A stretch of 64,000 bases of DNA from Candidatus Margulisiibacteriota bacterium (GTDB lineage Bacteria > Margulisbacteria > WOR-1 > O2-12-FULL-45-9 > XYB2-FULL-48-7), in contig JBAZZV010000004.1 of the NCBI GenBank assembly GCA_041658645.1, forward strand, positions 112,552 through 176,551, given 5' to 3'. Below the pieces are notes generated by a model. The model saw nothing but the letters and a program-made list of their open reading frames with translations. It ran no database searches and was not told where the DNA came from. This document shows positions 32,436 through 63,477 of the stretch, piece by piece; the stretch's first letter is position 1, and the number at the start of each line of letters is the position of its first letter. Position numbers and translations under genes: made by a program.

Positions 32436-33638
32436 CTACAGCTTGAACTTGGCTTCGGTCACGCCGAGCGCCTCGAAGGTCTCCCGGCCGACGGAGACCA
32501 CGACCTTGCGGCAGGCGATCCACTCTTCTCCCCGTTTCATAAAGACATTCCCGGAGAGGGTCAGTAATTCCTGCCGCTCATCGTAGAAGGCAGTCTCGGA
32601 ACGGGCAGTCCGACCCTGTTGCTGTACCTCGACACTGCCGGTCGCGCGGGCGTCGCCCGTTTTGGTGGCAAAGAAGATCTCGTTTGCCAGGACGACAGTT
32701 TTGCCTTTTAAAATAGCCTGTTTGTCAGGACTGTTCAGCCTGGTCAGGGAGCCCGTCCGCAGAGCGGCCTCCGCTTTTTCCAGGATAGTTTTGGTCCGCC
32801 CGCTCAACGCCAGACGTTTCTGCCGGCGGGAGTAGGTTCCGGCGTCGGCGGCCGAAAGTTTTTTTCCCTGGGCGACCTCCAGGCTGCCGGCGAGGTTGAG
32901 GTCGCGATCGATATCGAGATAGAAGGTTGCCTGCCGGCATTTGATCCTGGTCTTCTGGGCGCTTTCTTTCAGGCTCATGTCGACCTGGCCAGTGGCGGTC
33001 ATTTGCTCGGCTTCCCCGAGATATTCGAGAGAATCGGCGTTGATCAAGCCGTCGCGGCGGTCAATTTTGACCCCGCTGGTCAGCAGGGCGCTCTTTTTCT
33101 CGTGGTCGATGGCCATGTTCCCTGCCCGGATCACTCCGTTGCGCTCGGTCAGGACGACATGGCCATCGAGCCAGCTCTTCTTTTCCGCCGGGACGAACTT
33201 AATATGGTCGGCGCGGATGCTGACCCATTTACTTTTATTCGGGTTGGACCGGCCGACCCGGCCGAGATCGAGCCGGGTGCGGGCGTCAAATGCCTCCACG
33301 ATCTCGCTGTGGCGGAAGGTCAGGCCGCGCGGCGCGGCCAAGTTGGCCAGGACCGGATGGCCCTCTTTGTCGTAAATGCGGCCGGCGGTGATCCCCTGCA
33401 GGGTGGTGACCTCCTGGGCCTTGTCGGTCCAGGCATAACCAACTTTAAGCTCCCAGAGCCTTTTTCCCTCACGCCGCCCTTCGATCCTGGTTTGCCGGAA
33501 CTCGGCTATCTTTTCGAGCTTAGTGTCGTTGAAGAAGGTCGTGTCGCGGGGGGAGATGAGAAAGTAAGCGACACCCAGGACCCCGAGGGAGAAAAGGGCG
33601 GCCAGGATGATCACTTTCCAGGAGGAGGACTCTTCCAT
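32436..33638 (-). CDS. N-terminally anchored LptC/LptA (OstA-like beta-jellyroll) repeat protein
   Basis: 400 aa with one N-terminal TM helix. Repeated beta-strand-rich segments follow the OstA-like pattern (e.g. GNVFMKRGEEWIACRKVV, GHVVLTERNGVIRAGNMAIDH). This is a pattern-level call only. Confidence 0.6.
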   Translation of the reverse strand: MEESSSWKVIILAALFSLGVLGVAYFLISPRDTTFFNDTKLEKIAEFRQTRIEGRREGKRLWELKVGYAWTDKAQEVTTLQGITAGRIYDKEGHPVLANLAAPRGLTFRHSEIVEAFDARTRLDLGRVGRSNPNKSKWVSIRADHIKFVPAEKKSWLDGHVVLTERNGVIRAGNMAIDHEKKSALLTSGVKIDRRDGLINADSLEYLGEAEQMTATGQVDMSLKESAQKTRIKCRQATFYLDIDRDLNLAGSLEVAQGKKLSAADAGTYSRRQKRLALSGRTKTILEKAEAALRTGSLTRLNSPDKQAILKGKTVVLANEIFFATKTGDARATGSVEVQQQGRTARSETAFYDERQELLTLSGNVFMKRGEEWIACRKVVVSVGRETFEALGVTEAKFKL

Positions 33639-51555: not shown

Positions 51556-51595
51556 TTACCGGCCGTTTTCTTAGGTCGTGGGCAAAGATTTCTTT

Positions 51596-54500
51596 ATGAG
51601 AAGCATAATAATTTTTGGGCTTTTGATCTTTTCTCTTTTTGGACCGGCCTATGCAGCTGCCGATTATTATGTCGACCCCGCCGGTTCAAATTCTAATGAC
51701 GGCTTGACCGCCGGCACGGCCTGGAAAAACCTGACCTATGCGGCGACCATGTCGGCGGTCGGCGACACCATTCACGCGGCGGCCGGGACGTATAATGCGG
51801 CGCTCGGTGAAGTTTTTCCGATAACTGTAGCCAACCGCACAATAACCTCAAGTGCCTCGAACCTGGCGACGATCGATGCTGGTAGTTCAGATAATAATAT
51901 GCTCAACGTCGGGGCAAATACCACACTAGAGGGCCTGACGATCAAGAAAACCTCGACTAACAACTACGCGGTGAATGTGACGGGTGCCAACGTCCAATTA
52001 TTGACCAGTATCGTTTCGGGAGGAGCCAGTTCCCTCTATTTAACCAGCGGTGCCGATTACTGTCTGGTCCAGGGTAATGCCATCAATAATTGCGGTAGTA
52101 ATGTTTACTATCCGATTTATGCGGCCAGCGGAGCTGATTATTTGATCTTCAGGAACAATACTATAACTAATTCATATGGCAATAGTTCTGCGACCGGTAT
52201 TTACCTGATAGGAATTTCATATGCCACGATCGAAGGCAATACGATAACGGCTGACAACGGTATTTACATGTCTGGTACCTGTACCGGCTTTGATATTAAG
52301 ACCAATAAATTGATCGGCTACAGCAATAATACCAATGCTTACGCTGGTATAATAACCAGGGGGAACGGGGCAATAACCTCGAACGAGGTGCGGGGCTATC
52401 TGAACACAGGTGTCGGCAGCATCTATATCACCGGCGGTAATGATCCGGTCACGATCAGCAAGAATACGATCGTCGATAACGCTGTCGGTATCCGTAATGT
52501 TTCTAGCGGGGCGGTAACGGTCAAGAATAATATCATCGCCGGCCGGACAAGACCGGGGAAATATTATGATAACAGCGTCGGCCTTTACAATAACACTTCA
52601 AACGGTTCGATCAACAGCTCGTACAACCAATTATTCAATGTCGAAACGGGTTATTACGTGGCTTATGGGACGATCAACGGGCGGACGAATGATGCGACGG
52701 CCTGCCCGCGCTTTGCCAACCCGGACGCGAACAATTATTTACTTTGCACCGACTCGCCGTGTTTGAACAGCGCCGATCCGGCCGACGGGGGTAACCGGGG
52801 CGCCTACGGTGGCGCCGCGGCCAGTTCGGGGATAGTCGCCGTCTCCTACGTCAGCAACAGCGGGAATGATTCGACCGGGGACGGCAGTCTGGGCAGTCCC
52901 TGGAAGACGATCGCCAAGGCGCTGGGCTCGACCGAAGGGACGGTGTACGTGAGGGGCGGGACGTATAACGCGGCGGCGGGCGAGACCTTTCCGTTGACTT
53001 TGGAAGTGAGCCAGGGCTTGAAGCAGTACCTGACGGAGGCGGCGACGATCGATTCGGCGGCCGCGACTGTCTCGACAGTCATGCTGGGGACGGGCGCGAC
53101 GCTGGACGGCATCGCGATCAATAACACTGCGAGCGGGGATTATTATGATGTAAGCATACTCGGGCCTTATTGTCAGGTCTTGAACAGCACTCTGACCAAA
53201 ACCAACGGCTCCGCGATTTATATAAACGGATCGGCCTCCCAACTGTCGGACGGCTCCGACAACTGCCTGGTGCAGGGGAACACGATCACCTACGGCGGGT
53301 GGTACTATCCGATCTATGCGGCCGGCGGGGCTGATTATTTGATCTTCAAGAACAATACGATAACAAACTCATACGCCGGCGTTTATTCGAACGGCATTTA
53401 CTTGGCCGGTAACAGCAATTCTTATACCACGATCGAGAGCAATACGATAATGGCTGATGTCGGTATTGGCATGGCCTACACCTGCAGTAATTTTGATATT
53501 AAGACTAATAAATTGATCGGTTACAGCAGCAATACCAATGCCGCCACGGGTATCCAAGTTAATGGGACCGGGACAATCATTTCGAACGAAGTGCGGGGCT
53601 ATCTGAACACCGGTTACGGGGGCATCCATTTTACCGGCGGCGGGCCGATCACGATCAGCAAGAACACGATCGTCAATAACGCGGTAGGGGTCCGCAACGT
53701 TTCCAACGGGGTGGCGACGGTCAAGAATAATATCATCGCCGGCCGGACAAGGCCGGGGAAATATTATGATAACAGCGTCGGTATTCTTAATGCCGCGTCC
53801 GGCATGACCAACAGTTCGTACAACCAGTTGTACAATGTTGAAATGGCTTATTATATTGTTTCTACCGGCACGATCAACGGGCGGACGAACGACGCGACGG
53901 CCTGCCCGCGCTTTGTCAACCCGGACGCGAACAATTATTTACTTTGCACCGACTCGCCGTGTTTGAACAGCGCCGATCCGGCCGACGGGGGTAACCGGGG
54001 CGCCTACGGTGGCGCCGCGGCCAGTTCGGGGATAGTCGCCGCATCCTACGTCAGCAACAGCGGGAATGATTCGACCGGCGACGGCAGTCTGGGCAGTCCC
54101 TGGAAGACGATCTTCAAAGCGCTGGGCTCGACCGAAGGGACGGTGTACGTGAGGGGCGGGACGTACAACGCGGCGGCAGGAGAGACCTTCCCGTTGACTT
54201 TGGAAGTAAGCAAGGGATTGAGGCGGTACCTGACGGAGGTAGTGACGATCGATTCGGCGGCCGCGGCTGTGACGACGGTCATGCTGGGGACGGGCGCGAC
54301 GCTGGACGGCATCGCGATCAATAACACTGCGAGCGGGGATTATTATGATGTAAGCATACTTGGGCCTTATTGTCAGGTCTTGAACAGCACTCTGACCAAA
54401 ACCAACGGCTCCGCGATTTATATAAACGGATCGGTCTACCAACTGTCGGACGGCCCCGACAACTGTCTGGTCCAGGGGAACACGATCACCTACGGCGGGT

Positions 54501-57500
54501 GGTACTATCCGATCTACGCGGTCGGCGGGGCCGATTATTTGATCTTCAGGAACAATACGATAACGAATTCATACGCCGGCGTTTATTCGAACGGCATTTA
54601 CTTAGTCGGCAACAGCAGTTCTTACGTCACGATCGAAGGCAATACGATAACGGCTGATGTTGGTATTGGCATGGCCAACACCTGCAGTAATTTTGATATT
54701 AAGACCAATAAATTGATCGGTTACAGCAGCAATACCAATGCCGCCGCAGGTGTCCAAGCTTACGGGAGCGGGACAATAACCTCGAACGAAGTGCGGGGCT
54801 ATTTGAACACCGGTTACGGCGGCATCTATATGGTCAGCGGCAATCCGATCATCAAGAAGAACACGATCGTCAAAAATGTTATTGGTATACGAATTGTCGG
54901 CGGCACGGCCACGAGTGAAAATAATATAATAATAAACAAACCGACCGGCGGGGCTCCCGATGCCGGCAGTTACGGCATCAAGCGGGTTGGCGGCACCATT
55001 ACGTCATTATACGACGATGTCTGGAATAATGAGACCAGTTGGTCGCCGGCGACAATTTCGGGGGTTGGGACCATCTCGGCGGATGCCGTGTTCGTTGACC
55101 CGACAAATAATGATTTTCATCTTCAAGGCAGCTCTCCCTGCATCGATGCCGGAGATCCAACGTCTCCGCTCGATCCCGACGGCAGCCGCGCCGACATGGG
55201 AGCTTACTCTTATTACCAAACCGATTTTACCGGGCCGGCAGTCGAAGTTACCTCACCGGTCGGCGGGGAAAAGTGGCAAGGTGGATCGTCTCAAAATATA
55301 ACCTGGACCCTTTCTGATTCGAGCGGCATTAAGGCAAACTCCGTTAATATTTATTATTCGACCGATAGCGGGGCAACTTATCCGAACACGATCGCGACCG
55401 GCGTCGCTACCAATGCGGCCTACCCCTGGAATCCGGTGCCGAGTTTGGACTCGTCGATCGTCAGGGTCAGGGTCACGGCCCAGGACAATTCGGCTGCCCA
55501 TAGTACAGGAACAGGAGAAAGCGCGGCGAATTTCACGATCGACTCAACGGCGCCGAGCGCGCCGACGCTGTCAACCCCGGCGAATAACAGTTATGCTACA
55601 AGCCCCACGCCAACTTTTACCTGGCAGGCGGCGACTGATAGCGGCTCGGGAGTGGGCAGCTATGAAATAACGATCGATTCGACGGTGACGACGCAGGGGG
55701 CGACAACGACTTACACGCCCGGGACGGTACTTTCGGAAGGCGCTCATGCCTGGAAGGTGAGAGCCAAAGATGCGGTTGGCAATTGGGGCGCATTTTCGTC
55801 CACCTGGATCGTGACGGTCGATGTAACCGCGCCGAGCGCTCCGACACTGTCGACCCCGGCGAATAACAGTTACGCTACAAGCACTACGCCGACTTTTACC
55901 TGGCAGGCGGCGACGGACAGCGGTTCAGGTGTTGGCAGTTACGAAATAACGATCGATACGACGGTGGCGACCCAGGGAGTGACAACGACTTATACGCCCG
56001 GGACGGCGCTGTCGGAAGCCGCCCATACCTGGAAGGTGAGAGCGAAGGACGTAGCCGGCAACTGGGGCGCCTTTTCGTCCACCTGGACGGTGACGGTCGA
56101 TGCGACCGCGCCGAGTGCGCCGACACTTGTAACCCCGGCCAATGGCGCTTCTGTCGCGACACCTACGCCGACCCTGACCTGGGAAGCGGCAACGGATAGC
56201 GGTTCAGGCATAGGGAGTTATGAAGTTACGATCGACACGACAGCGGCAACTCAAGGGGCGACAACGAGTTACACTACTCCTATTTTGACCGAAGCCGCGC
56301 ATACCTGGAAGGTGAGAGCGAAGGACATAGCTGGCAACTGGGGGGGCTTTTCTTCCACTTTCGGTTTGACTGTCGACCTGACCGGGCCGGGGATCACGGG
56401 CATCACATTAAAGGACATAACAAGTGAAAGCACGCGTTATACCAATTTGCCGATAATTACGGTCGAAGCCGCCGGGACCAGCGGCTCGCCGGCGCAGATG
56501 CGCCTGGCGGAAAACACCGGCTTTTCGACCAATGATTCCGGCTGGCTGGCCTATGTTAATCCAACGCGATATTCTCTGACGGCCGGAGATGGCGGCAAAA
56601 CCGTTTACTACAAATTGCGGGACAATGTTTCAAATGAAAGTGTAGTGGTGACAGCCGGTATCACCCTGGATTCAACGGGCCCGGGCGCGCCGGTCTTAGT
56701 TACGCCGGCAAATGGTGACACGACAATCGAAACGACGCCAACTTACAGCTGGAGTGCGGCGACCGACGCGTTAAGCGGAGTTATCAGTTATGAGATCAAG
56801 GTTGATACGACTGCGACTACCCTTGGGGCGGTAACAAGCTATGTCCAGCCGACGGCACTGTCGCTGGCCGCTCATACATGGCAGGTGAAGGCGAAAGACG
56901 GTGCGGGCAACTGGGGCGATTACAGCGGTTCGTGGAGCTTTACTGTTGTTACTGCAACCACCACAACCACTACTACAACTACCACTACGACAACGGCCAC
57001 CACAACGACGACAACTGTTGCGGGAGCAACCACGACTACCACTACCACAACAACTACGGTTGCCGACACGACTGCGCCCACAGTCGTGGTCAATATCGAG
57101 GGTGTTGCAGTCAAGGATGGCGATCATATCGGCAAACAGCCGACTTTTGAAATCACGCTTAATGATAATCTGGCGCTGGATACTTCTTCGATCAAGGTCT
57201 GGCTTGACGGGAACATTGTTTCGTCGGCTAAAGCGACGGCGGCTACGTCCGTTACCAGCACAAAGCTGCAGATCAAACCGACGACCGAGCTAGCGGACGG
57301 CTCCCACACTTTGAGGATCGAGACCAAAGACATGGCCGGCAATCAAGTTGTTAAGGCATTTACCTTGCTGGTCTCTTATGAGAGCGCGGCCAAGGTGCTG
57401 GGGAATGTCACGGTCTCGACTCCGGTCTTTTCGCCGGCCAAGGATCAAACAATGTCAATGGCTTTTAATCTGACCAAGGATGTGAACACGATGTTTTTGA

Positions 57501-57703
57501 TGGTCGGGCCGGGCGGTGAATCGGTCTGGACGCGCCGGTTCACGGCCGGAGCCAACGGCGCCAGGGCCGGTTATAACGAAATAAAATTCAACGGCGTTTC
57601 GGATATAAGCGGCACCCAACTCGCCAACGGCATCTATGTTTATAAGATAGTGGCGGAGGGCAAAGTGATCGGCTCCGGCCATCTTGTCGTGTTCAATCAA
57701 TAA
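51596..57703 (+). CDS. Giant secreted surface protein: 3 right-handed beta-helix modules, 4 Ig/FN3-like repeats, a poly-Thr linker, Ig-like domains and a C-terminal FlgD-Ig/T9SS-CTD-like domain
   Basis: The ATG at 51596 gives signal peptide [20 protein letters not shown] (the track start GTG 51578 is less likely). NNTITNSY and GNTITAD-type parallel beta-helix repeats recur, along with 93-aa repeats containing [24 protein letters not shown]. The C terminus is [25 protein letters not shown]. Confidence 0.9.
   Translation: [2035 protein letters not shown]
52500..54900. repeat. Tandem repeat with exact 1,200-nt period inside the giant gene
   Basis: Lines 52741-52800 and 53941-54000 are 60/60 identical. 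Neighbouring 60-nt lines are 56-58/60 identical. A more diverged copy extends upstream to about 51650. Confidence 0.9.
55545..56385. repeat. Three tandem 279-nt (93-aa) Ig/FN3-like coding repeats; a fourth diverged copy lies at about 56680..56950
   Basis: GCCGAG(C/T)GC anchors are at 55552, 55831 and 56110. Confidence 0.85.
56951..57058. repeat. Poly-threonine coding low-complexity linker
   Basis: ACN-codon run encoding [37 protein letters not shown]. Confidence 0.9.
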
Positions 57704-57705
57704 AC

Positions 57706-60657
57706 ATGGCCTTGCCTTTAAAACGCGCATTATTACTTATTATTTTTGTCACGGCGTTTAGCTGCGCCGCCTCGGCCCAAACCAGGGTGGCCACCGACCC
57801 GTCGCGCATCGGGGTCGGGGCCCGCATTCTCGGTATGGGGAAAAGTTTTATCGGTTTGTCGGATGACGTGTCCGGCATGTTCATCACCCCGGCTTCGTTG
57901 TCCTCGATCAAGAATTTTCAGGCGACCACCATGTCCGGCCGCTTCATCAACGAATTTGATTATATGAACCTGGCGGCAGCTGCGCCGACAAAGTTCGGGA
58001 ATATCGGTTTGGGTCTGGCGGGCAGCAACATCAGCTTCCTGGGTTTTACCTCAACGACCGAAGTCCTCGACGGCACCAGGCTCATTCCCTCAACTACCGA
58101 AGGTTCGACGTATGGCTTCAACAACCGGGTCTATTTGCTTTCCTGGTCGGCCGGTTTGGGGGGGCTGCTGGAAAAATTGTCGCTGGGCGCCAGCTATAAA
58201 TTCTTTATGGTCGATCTTTCCGGCCCGGGAATAGTCGGCGGCCGGGCGAAGGGCAATGAATTGGACTTTGGCCTCAATTTTAAGCCGAGCGCTTCGGTCA
58301 GTACCGGACTGGTCGTCCAGAACGCTTTGCCCGCTGCCTGGGGCGGCAAAATTAGGTACGATAACGGCAACGAAGAAACCTTTCCCTCGATCTTAAAAGT
58401 AGGCTTGAGCTTAAAACTCCTGGGCGAAGACGGCTTCCGTAAAATAGGGAACAACGAGTTGTCCTTTAATCTGGATGAAGATATTTCCCCTCTCCGGCCG
58501 TCTCTGCCTGCGCTGACGCACACGGGCCTTGAGTGGTCGCCATTGCCGGTCATCGATTTAAGGGTTGGGATTGACCAGGAAACGGTGGGAACCGGCACCG
58601 GCAGCCAGTTGGAAGCTTCGAACAATTTGACCGCCGGAGTGGGTCTTTATTTTGGCGAATTTCGCTTTGATTACGCCTATCATCAATACTCGCAGCTGTC
58701 GGAAAACACCACCAATTATTTTTCCATCACCTACGGCGCGGCCAGAAAAAAAACTAAGCCGGGGCCACCCGTGAAAACGGCTTCATTTAAGCTTTCACCT
58801 GCCGACAAGAGCATTATGTATGGGGAGCTGGTCACGATCGAAGGCCGGGTGCTTAACAGGGAAATTAAGTCGGTAAAGGTGAACGGTCTCGAAGCGGCAC
58901 TGATAAACGATCAGTTTAAAATTGAATTCCCGCTGATTATGGGTAAGAATTTTTATCGGATTGATGGGTATGACGGCAGAAAAAAGCTTTTCGACAGCCA
59001 GAGGATCAGGCTCCTGCGGCTCAAGGATTTCAAAGATGTTCCGCCGGATTACTGGTCAGGCATTCCGATCGGCGCACTGGCGATGGAAAACATCGTCACC
59101 GGTTATCCCGACGGGACTTTCCAGCCGGAAGGGAACATCAGCCGTGCGGAGATGTGCTTGCTGTTGATCAAAACGAGGTCTTTAACCGCCGGCAACGAAC
59201 TTAAATTTCCTTTCAAGGATGTAGCGGCCGGGCACTGGGCGGCGCGGTCTATCGCACAGGCGGTTGATCTGGGTATCGTCAAAGGTTATCCGGATGGCAG
59301 GTTCAAGCCGAATGGCTTGATCAGCCGCGCGGAGGGAGTGGCCATGCTGTCCAGATTCGGCGGCTTACCAGCGGCCAAAGGAGAAAGTTTGCGTTTCACC
59401 GACGTGCCCGGCCGCAGCTGGGCTTATCGGGCGGTGGCGTCCGCGGACGAAGCCGGACTGCTGGGCTATTTGAAAGGGGATTTATTTGAGCCGGATAAAA
59501 AATTGACCCGTTCGGAAGCAGCCGCAATGCTGGCCGGGATCGCTCCGTTCTCTTTGCTGCTGGCCGACATTCTGGATTGGGAAAAGGAAACTTTCCGTCA
59601 ATTTTATCTGCCGGAGGCAATGAAACCGGCGGCAGTCAGGACCGAAGAAGTTAAACCTAAAATAATAACGCCCGAAGTAATTAAGCCGGTAGAAATTGGG
59701 CCGGAAACAATTAAAGCTGAAGCAATAAGGCCGGTTGAAGCTAAACCAACAGCAATTAGACCCGAAGCAATTAAAGCGGCAAAAATGGAGGAAGTTACGC
59801 CGGCAGAAGTCGAGAAGAAAGAGACCCGGAAATTTAAAAAGCCTTCTTTTTCAACCAGACCGATGGATAAAACTATTGTCTATAATTCCATCGTTACTTT
59901 TGAGGGGCAGGTTATCAACCCGGAAGTAACCAGGGTGCAAATTAATAATATCAAGATTGTTTTGTCGGGTAAAAAATATAAAGTCAGCCTGCTGCTGAAA
60001 CCGGGGAAAAATTCTTTTTCCATTAACGGCTATAACGCAAAAGGCAGACTGGTCGGCAGGCAAAGGATCAGGGTTTTGTCGCTTAAGGACTTTAGCGATG
60101 TCGTGCCGGGCCACCCGGCCAAAATGCGGATCGCGCTGGTAGCAACACTGGGAATAATGAGCGGTTTTGCTGACGGCACTTTTAAGCCCGGCTTAGATAT
60201 CAGACGGGCTGACTATTTAATTAAATTGCTGTCGCTCGGCAAAATACCTGCAGCCGGGTCGTCGGAACTGCCTTTTATCGATATAAAACCAACTGATCAG
60301 GCCGCCCCGTATATAAAAGCCGGTTATCAGCGGAAAATTATCACCGGCTATCCGGACAGGACTTTTCGGCCGAAGCGGCCCACCAGCCGCGCAGAAAGCG
60401 TCGTCATGTTGCTTAGGTTTACCCGGCAGGAATTGCCTCAGGTAAAAAACAAACCTTATCCAGATGCTCCGGTCGGGCATTGGGCGGTTCGGGAGATAAC
60501 AGCGGCCAAACAAACCGGAATGTTAAAATATGTGCTGATCAACTTTTATCCCAATCAGGCGATTAGCCGAGCAAATACGGCGGTCATGCTGTCCAATTTA
60601 GGGCCGATAAAGGACAGGATCGATGATCTCTTGGACTGGGAAAATGGTTATAATTGA
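57706..60657 (+). CDS. PorV/PorQ-like outer-membrane beta-barrel fused to two [Ig-like + 3x SLH] blocks
   Basis: 983 aa with signal peptide ...SCAASA. The N-terminal signature is GARILGMGKSFIGLSDDVSGMFITPASL, and the barrel-like region ends at NYFSITYGA. There are six SLH-like units, for example FKDVPPDYWSGIPIGALAMENIVTGYPDGTFQPEGNISRAEMCLLLIK. Confidence 0.85.
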   Translation: MALPLKRALLLIIFVTAFSCAASAQTRVATDPSRIGVGARILGMGKSFIGLSDDVSGMFITPASLSSIKNFQATTMSGRFINEFDYMNLAAAAPTKFGNIGLGLAGSNISFLGFTSTTEVLDGTRLIPSTTEGSTYGFNNRVYLLSWSAGLGGLLEKLSLGASYKFFMVDLSGPGIVGGRAKGNELDFGLNFKPSASVSTGLVVQNALPAAWGGKIRYDNGNEETFPSILKVGLSLKLLGEDGFRKIGNNELSFNLDEDISPLRPSLPALTHTGLEWSPLPVIDLRVGIDQETVGTGTGSQLEASNNLTAGVGLYFGEFRFDYAYHQYSQLSENTTNYFSITYGAARKKTKPGPPVKTASFKLSPADKSIMYGELVTIEGRVLNREIKSVKVNGLEAALINDQFKIEFPLIMGKNFYRIDGYDGRKKLFDSQRIRLLRLKDFKDVPPDYWSGIPIGALAMENIVTGYPDGTFQPEGNISRAEMCLLLIKTRSLTAGNELKFPFKDVAAGHWAARSIAQAVDLGIVKGYPDGRFKPNGLISRAEGVAMLSRFGGLPAAKGESLRFTDVPGRSWAYRAVASADEAGLLGYLKGDLFEPDKKLTRSEAAAMLAGIAPFSLLLADILDWEKETFRQFYLPEAMKPAAVRTEEVKPKIITPEVIKPVEIGPETIKAEAIRPVEAKPTAIRPEAIKAAKMEEVTPAEVEKKETRKFKKPSFSTRPMDKTIVYNSIVTFEGQVINPEVTRVQINNIKIVLSGKKYKVSLLLKPGKNSFSINGYNAKGRLVGRQRIRVLSLKDFSDVVPGHPAKMRIALVATLGIMSGFADGTFKPGLDIRRADYLIKLLSLGKIPAAGSSELPFIDIKPTDQAAPYIKAGYQRKIITGYPDRTFRPKRPTSRAESVVMLLRFTRQELPQVKNKPYPDAPVGHWAVREITAAKQTGMLKYVLINFYPNQAISRANTAVMLSNLGPIKDRIDDLLDWENGYN
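59641..59785. repeat. 15-nt periodic coding repeat (PE[AVT]IK pentapeptides)
   Basis: It encodes PKIITPEVIKPVEIGPETIKAEAIRPVEAKPTAIRPEAIKAAK between the two SLH blocks. Confidence 0.8.
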
Positions 60658-60683: not shown

Positions 60684-61058
60684 ATGATCAAAGGGATCGG
60701 CATAGATATTATCGAGATCGACCGGATCAGGTCGGCGGTCGAGACTTACGGCGAAAAATTCCTGGCGCGGGTCTTTACCGCCCGGGAGATCAGCTATTGC
60801 TGGCGCAGTAAAGCCTACCGGATCCCGGAACTGGCGGTCCGTTTTGCCGCTAAAGAAGCTTATTCCAAAGCGCTGGGGACAGGGATCACCGGGTTTGGCC
60901 GGCGGAACAGCGGGGTCAGCTGGCAGGACATCGAGATCGTCAATAATGTTCAGGGGAAACCGTTGATCTCCTTTAAAGGGATGCTGGCCGACAAAGCTCA
61001 AGTCAGCCTGTCGCACAGCCGCGATTACGCGGTCGCTACCGTATATGTTGAAGAGTGA
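60684..61058 (+). CDS. acpS: Holo-[acyl-carrier-protein] synthase
   Basis: 124 aa with MIKGIGIDIIEIDRI, FAAKEAYSKALG and SLSHSRDYAVA. Confidence 0.93.
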   Translation: MIKGIGIDIIEIDRIRSAVETYGEKFLARVFTAREISYCWRSKAYRIPELAVRFAAKEAYSKALGTGITGFGRRNSGVSWQDIEIVNNVQGKPLISFKGMLADKAQVSLSHSRDYAVATVYVEE

Positions 61059-61884
61059 AATAAAAAAAGTCCTGCCTAAAAGACACCCGGGGACCCACAA
61101 GGGTGATTACGGCCGCGTCCTGATCGTGGCCGGTTCAAAAGGGATGCTGGGCGCGGGAGTTTTGGCCGCGCGCGCCGCTTTGCGGGCCGGCGCAGGAGTC
61201 GTCTATTGGGCCGTGCCGGACGATCTGGTCAACTTAGCCAACACCATCACGCCGGAAATCATTGTCATCCAGCATAAACAGATCACAGAAATAAAAGTTG
61301 ATGTTGTCGCTATCGGTCCAGGTTTGGGAACATCGGAGCAAACCAAAAAACTTTTGTCGTTAGTCGTTAGCCTGCCTGCCGGCAAGGCAGGTCGTCAGTC
61401 GTTAGTTGTTATTGACGCTGATGCCTTGAACGTTATTGCCAAGCACCCCCAACTTTTGCCCAAGGACAAGAACAAGGACAAGAATATATTGACCCCCCAC
61501 CCAGGCGAAATGTCCCGTCTCCTTGGACAAAGCGTTGCTTCGATCCAGGCTGACCGCCCGGCTGCGGCTAAATTGGCAGCAGCCAAGTTCAACGCGATCG
61601 TGGTACTCAAGGGAGATAAAACGGTCGTGGCTAACCCGCAGGGGAAGGTTTACTTGAACAACACTGGCAATCCCGGTATGGGGACGGCCGGCTCGGGTGA
61701 CGTTCTAACCGGGCTGATCGCCGGTTTGCTCGGACAAGTCCCGTCCGCTTATGAGGCCGCCCAGATCGGCGTCTATCTGCACGGGCTGGCGGGCGACCTG
61801 GCGGCTAAAGAGAAAGGCGAGGTCAGCTTGATCGCTTCCGACCTTGTCGACTACGTTCCGGCTGCTGTATTACGTAACTCGTAA
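61045..61884 (+). CDS. ADP-dependent NAD(P)H-hydrate dehydratase (YjeF C-terminal type)
   Basis: 279 aa with HKGDYGRVLIVAGS, IDADAL, LTPHPGE and GNPGMGTAGSGDVLTG. It carries two low-complexity inserts. Confidence 0.9.
   Translation: MLKSEIKKVLPKRHPGTHKGDYGRVLIVAGSKGMLGAGVLAARAALRAGAGVVYWAVPDDLVNLANTITPEIIVIQHKQITEIKVDVVAIGPGLGTSEQTKKLLSLVVSLPAGKAGRQSLVVIDADALNVIAKHPQLLPKDKNKDKNILTPHPGEMSRLLGQSVASIQADRPAAAKLAAAKFNAIVVLKGDKTVVANPQGKVYLNNTGNPGMGTAGSGDVLTGLIAGLLGQVPSAYEAAQIGVYLHGLAGDLAAKEKGEVSLIASDLVDYVPAAVLRNS
61356..61411. repeat. Eight-unit phased heptamer array (GTCGTTA family) in frame in the dehydratase gene
   Basis: Units are GTCGTTA GTCGTTA GCCTGCC TGCCGGC AAGGCAG GTCGTCA GTCGTTA GTTGTTA. 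The central three units form the hairpin CCTGCCT/AGGCAGG. Confidence 0.8.
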
Positions 61885-61970
61885 TGCGTAACGTGTAATG
61901 CGTAATTGGTTATTGGAATTTGGATATTGATATTTGTTTTGAGGTTTGAAGTTGGATGTTTGAGGTTGTA
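61873..61970. repeat. Fourteen-unit phased heptamer array filling the nnr-mlaE spacer
   Basis: Units are CGTAACT CGTAATG CGTAACG TGTAATG CGTAATT GGTTATT GGAATTT GGATATT GATATTT GTTTTGA GGTTTGA AGTTGGA TGTTTGA GGTTGTA. It contains the dehydratase TAA stop. Confidence 0.85.
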
Positions 61971-61975
61971 TAAAG

Positions 61976-62755
61976 ATGCCATACAGAAAAGTCACTGAAA
62001 ATATCGGCAATAGAACGCTTCATATCCTGGAGATAGTGGGCGAGATCTCCAGTTTGGCCGGAAAAGTTGTTCGAGATATCTTTCGGGGCAAGGTCAACCT
62101 CAAGCTGACGCTCGAACAGATGGTCAAGGTCGGTTTCGATTCTCTTCCCCTGGCGCTGACCACTTCGGCCTTTGTCGGCATGGTCTTTGCCATGCAAATA
62201 GCGGCAGAATTTTCCAAGTTCGGCGCCGGGAAATTCGTGGGCGGGCTGATGGGGGTCGCGATCTCCCGGGAACTTGGCCCGGCGATTACCGGGATAGTGG
62301 TCGCGGCCCGCGTGGCCGCTTCTATTACCGCGGAGATCGGGACGATGAAGGTGACGGAACAGATCGACGCGATGGAAGCGCTGGGGGTAAGCCCGATCCG
62401 CTACCTGATCATCCCGCGGTTCCTGGCGACCACCCTGATGCTCCCGCTGCTGACCATTCTGACGATCATTACCGCTTTTATCGGCGGTTACTTTGTCTCG
62501 ATCTTCGTCGGCCGGATCAACCCGGTCGAATATATGGAAACGGCCCGCTCGCTCTCCAAATTGTCGGATCTTTACGGGGGATTGGCGAAAACAGCCGTTT
62601 TTGGCATGATCATTTCGATCGTTGCTTGCTACCGGGGACTGAATACCAAGGGCGGAGCCAAGGGGGTAGGCGAGGCGACCACTTCGTCGGTCGTGATAAC
62701 GCTGATCAGCCTCTTTATCGTGAATTACTTTTTGTCGATGTTATTATTTAGATGA
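61976..62755 (+). CDS. mlaE: Mla-type ABC transporter permease
   Basis: 259 aa with the MlaE pattern RELGPAITGIVVAARVAASITAEIGTMKVTEQIDAMEALGV. Confidence 0.9.
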   Translation: MPYRKVTENIGNRTLHILEIVGEISSLAGKVVRDIFRGKVNLKLTLEQMVKVGFDSLPLALTTSAFVGMVFAMQIAAEFSKFGAGKFVGGLMGVAISRELGPAITGIVVAARVAASITAEIGTMKVTEQIDAMEALGVSPIRYLIIPRFLATTLMLPLLTILTIITAFIGGYFVSIFVGRINPVEYMETARSLSKLSDLYGGLAKTAVFGMIISIVACYRGLNTKGGAKGVGEATTSSVVITLISLFIVNYFLSMLLFR

Positions 62756-63477
62756 TCAAATTCAACAAGCTGACCAAATATTTTGATAAAATAAAGGTCA
62801 TTGAAAAGTGCGACCTGCTTATCGAGGACGGCTCTTCCGTGGCGATCATCGGGCCGTCCGGTTGCGGTAAAAGCACTCTCTTGAGGCTGATCATTCGCCT
62901 GACCGAGCCGACCTCCGGCTCGGTCCTGGTTGATGGCCAGGAGGTCGGCCGGCTCGGAGGTGAGGGGCTGATCGAATTGCGCAAGAAGACCGGGATGATC
63001 TTCCAGACCTCGGCCCTTTTTGATTCCATGAACGTCTTTGAGAACGTCGCTTTCGCCCTGCACGAGCATACGAAAAAGAGCGTAACGGAAATCAGGAAGA
63101 TCGTCGCGGAGAAACTTAAAATGGTCGAACTGGAAGGGGTTGGCGACATGATGCCGTCGGAACTTTCGGGCGGGATGCAGCGCCGGGTCTGCATCGCCCG
63201 GGCGCTCGCTTTCGACCCGAAGATCATCCTCTACGATGAGCCGACCACCGGCCTCGACCCGATCACTTCTGTCACCATCGAGAATTTAATGGTAAAATTG
63301 AGCCAGGAGTTGAAGGTGACGTCGATTTTAGTCACCCATGTGCTGCAGACCGTTTATCGGGTGGCGCATAAGGTCTACATGCTCAACAATGGCGAGCTGC
63401 TCGACATCGGGACGCCGGAGCAGGCCAGGAACTCTAAGGATCCGGTCGTGGCTAAATTTATTTCGGGAGGTTTGTAA
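62752..63477 (+). CDS. mlaF: Mla-type ABC transporter ATP-binding protein
   Basis: 241 aa with Walker A GPSGCGKST, signature LSGGMQRR and Walker B ILYDEPT. Confidence 0.92.
   Translation: MIKFNKLTKYFDKIKVIEKCDLLIEDGSSVAIIGPSGCGKSTLLRLIIRLTEPTSGSVLVDGQEVGRLGGEGLIELRKKTGMIFQTSALFDSMNVFENVAFALHEHTKKSVTEIRKIVAEKLKMVELEGVGDMMPSELSGGMQRRVCIARALAFDPKIILYDEPTTGLDPITSVTIENLMVKLSQELKVTSILVTHVLQTVYRVAHKVYMLNNGELLDIGTPEQARNSKDPVVAKFISGGL

Follow-up and report, generated by a model that had tools for sequence, protein, structure and literature searches.

The window analyzed here, a 64,000-nucleotide (64-kb) stretch of contig JBAZZV010000004.1 from a Candidatus Margulisiibacteriota bacterium, contains two adjacent genes, the first encoding a giant protein with a signal peptide and a C-terminal domain (CTD, here called the tail) of the kind found as a sorting domain in type IX secretion systems (T9SS), and the second encoding a PorV/PorQ-like beta-barrel fused to SLH domains (the barrel-SLH protein). 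The pair is one member of a multi-paralogue family in its phylum and not a one-off. Within this family, tail-bearing genes lie beside barrel genes far more often than shuffling of gene labels would place them there, and the subtype of the tail co-varies with the clade of the barrel. With moderate confidence, we favor the reading that the barrel pins the outer membrane to the cell wall while also holding a surface protein tagged with a cognate tail. An earlier reading made from the DNA alone (the sequence-only reading) had singled out the pair and suggested that it could be a minimal module in which the barrel captures the tail of its neighbor and ties cargo as well as outer membrane to the wall. 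The feature exists and proves more systematic than could be seen from one sequence, and it is from this wider pattern, together with related systems, that we infer the mechanism.

The gene for the giant protein (positions 51596..57703, + strand) is an open reading frame (ORF) of 2,035 amino acids (aa) starting with the ATG at 51596, with an in-frame GTG at 51578, and homologous giants are encoded 5′ of barrel-SLH genes in relatives. Its stop codon is followed after 2 nt by the start of the barrel-SLH gene (57706..60657, + strand; an ORF of 983 aa), the junction reading CAA TAA ac ATG, and this operon-like spacing is compatible with co-transcription. Promoter and terminator scans around the pair returned sites in numbers not above those in shuffled sequence. 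The ORF list, the translations, and the junction bear out the ORF positions, the 2-nt gap, and the peptides given in the sequence-only reading.

The barrel-SLH protein begins with a predicted Sec-type signal peptide (57706..57777, + strand; ...FSCAASA before QTRV), which was read from the translation and forms a helix at residues 5 to 26 in the model, and continues with a PorV/PorQ-like, FadL-class outer membrane beta-barrel (aa 25 to 345; 57778..58740, + strand) recognized by NCBIfam models and by AlphaFold2 (AF2) modeling with a Foldseek search. The PorV/PorQ family model (NF033709) aligns with barrel residues 34 to 343 over profile positions 8 to 324 of 326 (E values of 8e-16 to 4e-17), a full-length match below the curated cut-off, and weaker matches were obtained with the PorVQ2 (NF052325) and PorQ (NF033711) models. 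No Pfam model matches the barrel region, and the PorP/SprF models of NCBIfam do not match it either. All 25 diverse aligned relatives match PorV_fam (best E value, 1.6e-30) and PorVQ2 at E values of ≤1e-3, while PorQ is matched by 24, PorV proper (NF033710) by 11, and FilD by 2 of the 25. The AF2 model of the barrel (predicted local distance difference test [pLDDT], 84.3; predicted template modeling score [pTM], 0.78) has as its best PDB matches 8gl6_F (E value, 1.7e-12; template modeling score [TM], 0.67) and 6h3i_F (E value, 3e-11; TM, 0.62). The PDB titles of both entries name T9SS complexes, and we take chain F in each to be PorV. FadL, TodX, and TbuX rank after these chains (TM, 0.50 to 0.56; E values of about 1e-8). 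A PDB sequence search with the barrel profile gave no PorV match; only the NCBIfam profiles and the search by fold bring out the relationship. The PorV/PorQ-like character of the barrel, which the sequence-only reading had proposed, is thus supported at the level of sequence profiles, with PorV as the best structural match of the model.

The C-terminal part of the protein carries five stretches matching Pfam SLH (E value, 1.8e-60) and two Glucodextran_B-like Ig domains. An internal duplication (36% identity over 269 aa; E value, 1e-60) resolves this part into two modules of one Ig domain and three SLH domains each, and therefore into the six SLH domains that had been read from the sequence. 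The first module, predicted to be periplasmic, occupies 58783..59592 (+ strand) and is connected by a Pro/Glu/Lys-rich repetitive linker (59593..59835, + strand) to the second (59836..60654, + strand; Glucodextran_B match at aa 717 to 781), which is a duplicate of the first. Both termini of FadL-class barrels lie on the periplasmic side, and the SLH modules should for this reason face the wall.

The tail of the giant protein (aa 1933 to 2035, about 103 aa; 57392..57700, + strand) is of the FlgD-Ig/type-A class, represented by PF13860 and by TIGR04183/PF18962, in a Margulisbacteria subtype. A tail hidden Markov model (HMM) was built from nine C-terminal sequences of proteins encoded beside homologous barrel genes, and after iteration it finds canonical Por_Secre_tail/FlgD_ig tails with E values of 1e-12 to 2e-7. 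Aligned by HHalign, the Margulisbacteria tail profile and the canonical tails are related with a probability of 99.0% (E value, 5.6e-18; 84 columns). Among 38 related tails, 14 match TIGR04183 (best E value, 8.4e-11), 16 match FlgD_ig (PF13860; best E value, 3.6e-9), 13 match the PorU model, and 8 match the PorZ model, with CHU_C giving a weak match in 2 only. A PDB profile search places tail matches in PorU 1057 to 1142 and PorZ/PG93 674 to 755, which are the tail regions of these proteins, and the type-B CTD models of NCBIfam do not match the window tail. The window tail keeps the G-x-Y motif (NGIYVYK), lacks the NYPNPFNP motif, and ends in G-S-G-H-L-V-V-F-N-Q instead of KKMxLLK; the subtype as a whole ends in G-x-G-x-hydrophobic residues and then an acidic or neutral residue. 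Membership of the FlgD-Ig/type-A sorting-domain superfamily is therefore solid by family profile, whereas the window sequence by itself would make a weak claim, and it is in the former sense that the assignment made by the sequence-only reading holds.

In 49 of 53 tail matches, the domain lies at the extreme C terminus (≤10 aa from the end). A HMMER scan of 1.84 billion representative proteins found the Margulisbacteria tail subtype in 2,820 clusters, 655 of them at E values of ≤1e-10, and most single matches are again at the extreme C terminus, in host proteins of 72 to 5,420 aa. Judged from these sequences, such C-terminal placement on varied proteins is the behavior of a sorting or docking tag. 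Some proteins of the representative library (e.g., P0155 to P0162) contain 8 to 15 internal tandem copies of the tail domain rather than one C-terminal copy. Searching for homologues by word index, with nothing but the 103-aa tail as the query, gave two candidates, neither of them significant.

Homologues of the barrel-SLH protein number 445, and in all 120 of those listed, the barrel is present and not the SLH part alone. Among those listed, the closest homologue (86% identity) belongs to a metagenome-assembled genome (MAG) of Candidatus Margulisiibacteriota, and every homologue with a named source falls in Margulisiibacteriota, Saganbacteria, or WOR-1. Most of the 120 are about 620 to 650 aa long, the usual form having one Ig-plus-three-SLH module; the closest relative (P0002; 954 aa) alone approaches the window protein in length, which is enough for two modules. 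A scan of GTDB species representatives yielded 154 relatives, of which 80 loci (numbered with the prefix L) were kept, all from the same phylum save one genome labeled Omnitrophota and some labeled only “bacterium.” The Omnitrophota-labeled MAG (L020 and L052; DATJPS010000048.1 and DATJPS010000124.1) is probably mislabeled or misbinned, and its L020 gene lies in a housekeeping synteny of the Margulisbacteria type. Up to seven barrel-SLH copies occur in one MAG among the kept loci, and SLH domains are present in 81 of 85 complete barrel ORFs.

The pairing of cargo and barrel genes was examined across 83 nonredundant loci containing 90 barrel genes and 49 tail-bearing genes, with longest-ORF gene calls in the related loci and adjacency counts resting on the purpose-built tail HMM. 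Thirty-seven of the 90 barrel genes have a same-strand neighbor ending in a tail, mostly upstream, the gap measuring roughly −9 to +130 nt. Counted from the other side, 37 of the 49 tail-bearing genes adjoin a barrel gene, compared with 14.0 ± 2.6 expected from within-locus label shuffling (maximum of 24 in 20,000 trials), and in loci with at least 12 genes, the figures are 16 of 23 against 3.3 ± 1.6 shuffled. The enrichment is thus about 2.6-fold overall and about 5-fold in the long loci. The paired passengers are mutually unrelated, including beta-helix giants, PSII_BNR/TIG proteins, and fn3/Ig proteins of 350 to 3,300 aa, and retain the tail. Tail subtype varies together with barrel clade (Mantel r, 0.60; p, 2e-4): of the four clades, clade 1 goes with tails ending in KVWVVKR, clade 2 with tails containing NGSYxLQ...GQTYFVVxD, and clade 4, to which the window barrel belongs, with tails containing NGIYVxKI...GKGYVVIYD or ...VVFNQ. 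Different clade-subtype pairs stand side by side in one operon in L045 and L073, and in L054, a paralogue without SLH domains still has a tail-bearing neighbor. A Zixibacteria homologue, a beta-helix protein bearing a canonical tail, has no PorV-like neighbor, and pairing is thus not shared generally by proteins of this kind.

In the subclade of the window, the gene order is argS, a class-IV aminotransferase gene, the giant gene with tail, the barrel-SLH gene, ACPS, yjeF, mlaE, and mlaF, and the giant gene lies 5′ of the barrel-SLH gene in this manner in L001, L003, L004, L013, L015, L019, and L047; in L010, a giant gene lies 3′ instead. More broadly, the barrel-SLH orthologue is found in a conserved envelope and housekeeping neighborhood running from the dcw cluster to pheA, argS, ACPS, yjeF, and mlaEFD.

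The mechanism that we propose has both proteins exported by Sec, as their predicted signal peptides suggest, and the PorV/PorQ-type, FadL-class barrel inserted into the outer membrane. The C-terminal Ig and SLH modules would lie in the periplasm and bind the wall, as expected from what is known of the SLH family, so that the outer membrane would be stapled to the wall in an OmpM-like manner. The tail of the giant protein would dock on its cognate barrel from the extracellular side, and the surface protein would in this way be held on a wall-pinned barrel. Such docking is suggested by analogy with PorV, which binds substrate tails, with the pairs PorU-PorV and PorZ-PorQ, and with the type-B/PorP-SprF partners, in addition to the adjacency and co-variation observed here, and surface exposure of the giant protein would follow the same logic. 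The window pair would then be one of several parallel barrel-cargo pairs in Margulisbacteria genomes, each with its own tail subtype.

Several observations weigh against this reading. The NF033709 score of the barrel (58.5 to 62.9 bits) falls short of the 90 bits set as the curated cut-off, and the window tail taken alone falls below threshold with both PF13860 (E value, 0.0059; 17 bits against a cut-off of 27) and TIGR04183 (E value, 0.073; 13.1 bits against a cut-off of 23). The AF2 model of the window tail is a six-strand sandwich (pLDDT, 78.6) whose matches in a fold search are generic Ig-like domains (C5a peptidase, FlgD, and PorU), with the RemA CTD (8gl6_D) in 37th place; as modeled, the fold is a generic Ig-like sandwich, and the structure search is nondiagnostic. 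A barrel fixed to the wall cannot act as a mobile shuttle in the manner of PorV. The co-variation of linked genes can stem from shared inheritance, with no contact needed between their products. The wall ligand of other SLH proteins is a pyruvylated wall polymer, and no csaB/PS_pyruv_trans gene was found within the 64-kb window. Besides the pair, the window contains no T9SS component, as the sequence-only reading had noted, and no translocon for a folded 2,000-aa cargo was found there. Finally, orthologous barrel-SLH genes stand in the housekeeping region without a tail-bearing neighbor in L005, L006, L009, L018, L020, L023, and L029. The idea that cargo and barrel always co-occur is hence rejected, and co-conservation of the pair, which the sequence-only reading had named as a point to check in relatives, is upheld as a strongly enriched but not an obligate adjacency.

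These seven loci show the barrel-SLH gene to be a core envelope gene, kept with or without this cargo, and because its orthologues lack a tail-bearing neighbor in several relatives, the barrel has a role independent of the cargo, most likely as a tether between outer membrane and wall. They also favor the alternative that tethering, or a channel function, is all there is, with the barrel-SLH protein as a housekeeping analogue of OmpM and its adjacency to cargo genes a matter of general envelope-gene clustering. The near-universality of SLH domains in the barrel family and the fact that SLH-barrel proteins of this phylum have already been counted as OmpM-like fit this alternative too. We nevertheless consider it unlikely, since gene clustering of a general kind does not account well for an adjacency exceeding the shuffled expectation to the extent seen both overall and in long loci, for tail subtypes that follow the barrel clade even inside one operon, or for the SLH-less paralogue of L054 that still lies beside a tail-bearing gene, and since characterized barrels of the PorV/PorQ class bind such tails (PMC5562754).

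A different explanation is that a full T9SS-like machinery, with a SprA/Sov-type translocon, PorK-N, and PorU, is encoded elsewhere in the genome and that the pair consists of a substrate and a specialized PorV/PorQ-like acceptor of that system rather than forming a module of its own. The homology of the tail to type-A sorting domains speaks for it, as do the roughly 2,800 clusters with a mostly C-terminal tail, a pattern expected of a general sorting signal, and the consideration that a 14-strand barrel would be unable to pass a folded protein of 2,000 aa by itself. Surveys place the T9SS only in Bacteroidetes/FCB (Fibrobacteres, Chlorobi, and Bacteroidetes) (PMC4793230, PMC5445135, and PMC12398890), the present phylum lying outside their coverage. 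This and the other evidence to the contrary are weak negatives: the 64-kb window holds no core gene, four large ORFs without a tail, taken from related loci and scanned with NCBIfam, gave no SprA-like match, and a literature search found no paper tying the T9SS to this phylum. On balance, this explanation appears improbable. It is very improbable that the barrel is a wall-anchored FadL-type channel for hydrophobic compounds and the CTD of the giant protein an ordinary structural Ig domain. The significant structural matches to FadL, TodX, and TbuX, the homologue P0109 with a Pfam Toluene_X match, and the generic Ig folds retrieved with the tail would suit such a channel, but the PorV chains rank first structurally, and the NCBIfam models that match are those for PorV, PorQ, and PorVQ2, FilD matching no more than 2 of 25 relatives. 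The tail, moreover, shares homology with sorting domains and sits almost without exception at the very C terminus of otherwise unrelated proteins.

Upstream of its tail, the giant protein has a modular architecture. A Sec-type signal peptide read from the translation (MRSIIIFGLLIFSLFGPAYA, followed by AADYY after the predicted cleavage site; 51596..51655, + strand) precedes three tandem right-handed beta-helix modules of about 400 aa each (51656..55222, + strand; Pfam Beta_helix, DUF1565, and NosD). At the DNA level, these modules are direct repeats with a period of about 1,200 nt and 75 to 96% identity. A 300-nt stretch is 96% identical between modules 1 and 2 (52667 to 52966 versus 53867 to 54166), the remainder of the 1,200-nt repeats being 75 to 89% identical; this suggests a recent duplication or gene conversion, and the stretch is also a possible site of collapse in the metagenome assembly. 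The beta-helix modules are followed by an Ig-like repeat region (55223..56944, + strand), which includes 279-nt (93-aa) tandem repeats (DNA repeat families D2 and D4 to D6) and matches an NCBIfam OmpL47-type domain in three stretches and Pfam Ig_Rha78A_N, and then by a Thr-rich linker read from the translation and a Big_13 Ig domain (56945..57391, + strand; Pfam Big_13 at aa 1843 to 1922).

The remainder of the window (1 to 48300 and 60684 to 63477) is of a housekeeping nature, with pheT, mutS, thioredoxins, DsbD, thyX, a GH57-rich glycogen cluster, rodA, gap, pgk, secG, the dcw cluster (mraY to murB), a split transketolase, pheA, argS, ACPS, and yjeF. An LptC/LptD_N-like gene (32436 to 33638, − strand) with faint Pfam matches is, together with mlaE/mlaF, consistent with a diderm envelope. 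In the barrel-SLH protein, the predicted signal-peptidase site (ASA before Q in window positions 57706 to 57790; CFA before Q in P0005 and P0016) would leave an N-terminal Gln, which recalls the “Q-rule” of Bacteroidetes (PMC5837995), although this is not universal, P0017 having A at that position. In L076 (9998 to 11526), a 358-aa barrel ORF is followed at once by a separate 156-aa SLH ORF, pointing to a split gene or a frameshift or else to a natural two-part form like Omp-alpha and Omp-beta of Thermotoga.

Paralogous pairs also occur in other settings. In five Saganbacteria-type MAGs (L032, L033, L034, L045, and L073), an operon of a tail-cargo gene and two barrel-SLH genes, in that order, lies directly 3′ of the flagellar export gene flhA on the same strand (e.g., L033:2726-13762), and in L045 and L073, it continues with a PSII_BNR/TIG tail-cargo gene. 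In the three loci long enough to show it, fliR and flhB stand ahead of flhA, as Pfam confirmed on the L033 copies. Some paralogous pairs might thus be flagellum associated, the tail being FlgD-Ig-like, or the arrangement may be mere lineage synteny. Tandem barrel-SLH pairs from different clades were found in L033, L034, L045, L073, and L078, with a tail-bearing cargo gene on each side of the tandem in L045 and L073. In addition, the strand opposite to paralogue clusters carries, a few genes away, the gene for a conserved small protein of about 380 to 400 aa that ends in the tail domain (L045:14947-16134, L073:16257-17405, L032:14320-15471, and L046:8815-10011, all − strand); Pfam gives only a weak FlgD_ig match for the L045 copy.

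A literature search found no paper on a combination of PorV and SLH; no paper on a T9SS in Margulisbacteria, Saganbacteria, or WOR-1; and nothing relevant on FlgD-Ig tails in candidate phyla, in keeping with the remark in the sequence-only reading that the arrangement was not known to have been described. Margulisbacteria are a sister lineage of Cyanobacteria. Tentatively, they may possess a display system independent of the Bacteroidota T9SS, in which several SLH-stapled PorV/PorQ-like barrels each hold their own tail-tagged proteins. If so, the tail-barrel recognition module would be older or more mobile than the T9SS itself, and outer membrane tethering and surface-protein anchoring would be joined in one polypeptide. 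The findings raise the question of what a PorV/PorQ-plus-tail module does outside the FCB superphylum, the only place where the T9SS has been described; in Margulisbacteria, on the Terrabacteria side of the bacterial tree, the module is abundant and diversified into cognate pairs. They also raise the question of what connects the wall, the outer membrane, and the surface layer in diderm Terrabacteria. To this, the family would contribute a tether that resembles OmpM but uses another barrel in the opposite topology and serves to anchor surface proteins as well. The set of cognate pairs offers a natural specificity matrix for tail-barrel recognition. If a T9SS core is absent from these genomes, a novel route for very large proteins across the outer membrane would be required.

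Among known systems, PorV and PorQ of the Bacteroidota T9SS are closest to the window barrel, being of the same barrel class by HMM and including the best structural match, and their partners carry a homologous C-terminal beta-sandwich. In Porphyromonas gingivalis, PorU and PorZ retain their tails, and it is PorV and PorQ, respectively, that hold them at the surface (PMC5562754). In contrast to PorV and PorQ, the window barrel scores below the curated cut-offs and is fused to SLH anchors, which would make it fixed rather than a mobile shuttle, and the Margulisbacteria barrels occur in a Terrabacteria-side phylum without a reported T9SS and as several paralogues with neighboring cognate cargo. 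Compared with canonical T9SS tails, the window tail has neither the NxPNPFNP motif nor the basic KKxxLLK ending. Type-B CTD proteins are bound to PorP/SprF partners encoded beside them, as in SprB-SprF and PG1035-PorP (PMC9143113 and PMC12618676). The genetic logic is shared, a cargo gene standing beside its own barrel gene in several parallel pairs per genome, and the barrel is likewise used in surface anchoring or targeting (PMC9143113 and PMC12618676). The tail here is type-A/FlgD-Ig-like and the barrel PorV/PorQ-like, however, whereas PorP/SprF proteins have no SLH domains and type-B systems depend on the T9SS translocon.

The third comparison is with OmpM, Slp, SlpA, and the cyanobacterial SLH-porins, in which one polypeptide likewise combines an outer membrane barrel with periplasmic SLH domains in the same phylogenetic setting. 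Witwinowski et al. defined OmpM operationally as SLH plus beta-barrel, reported such proteins in Saganbacteria and Margulisbacteria, and argued that SLH-barrel proteins are the outer membrane tether of diderm Terrabacteria. The barrel-SLH protein, with SLH domains and a barrel in one chain, falls under this operational definition, and the family may already have been counted among the “OmpM homologues.” Unlike OmpM, which has an N-terminal SLH domain, a coiled coil, and a C-terminal porin, it has the reverse order, with the barrel at the N terminus and the SLH domains at the C terminus; its barrel is of the 14-strand PorV/FadL class, Ig-like spacers take the place of the coiled coil, three or six SLH domains are present, and its genes are paired with genes for tail-tagged cargo. 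The arrangement is thus a new combination and not a new principle, with precedents in the OmpM-type tethers, in PorU-PorV and PorZ-PorQ, and in the type-B CTD proteins with their PorP/SprF partners.

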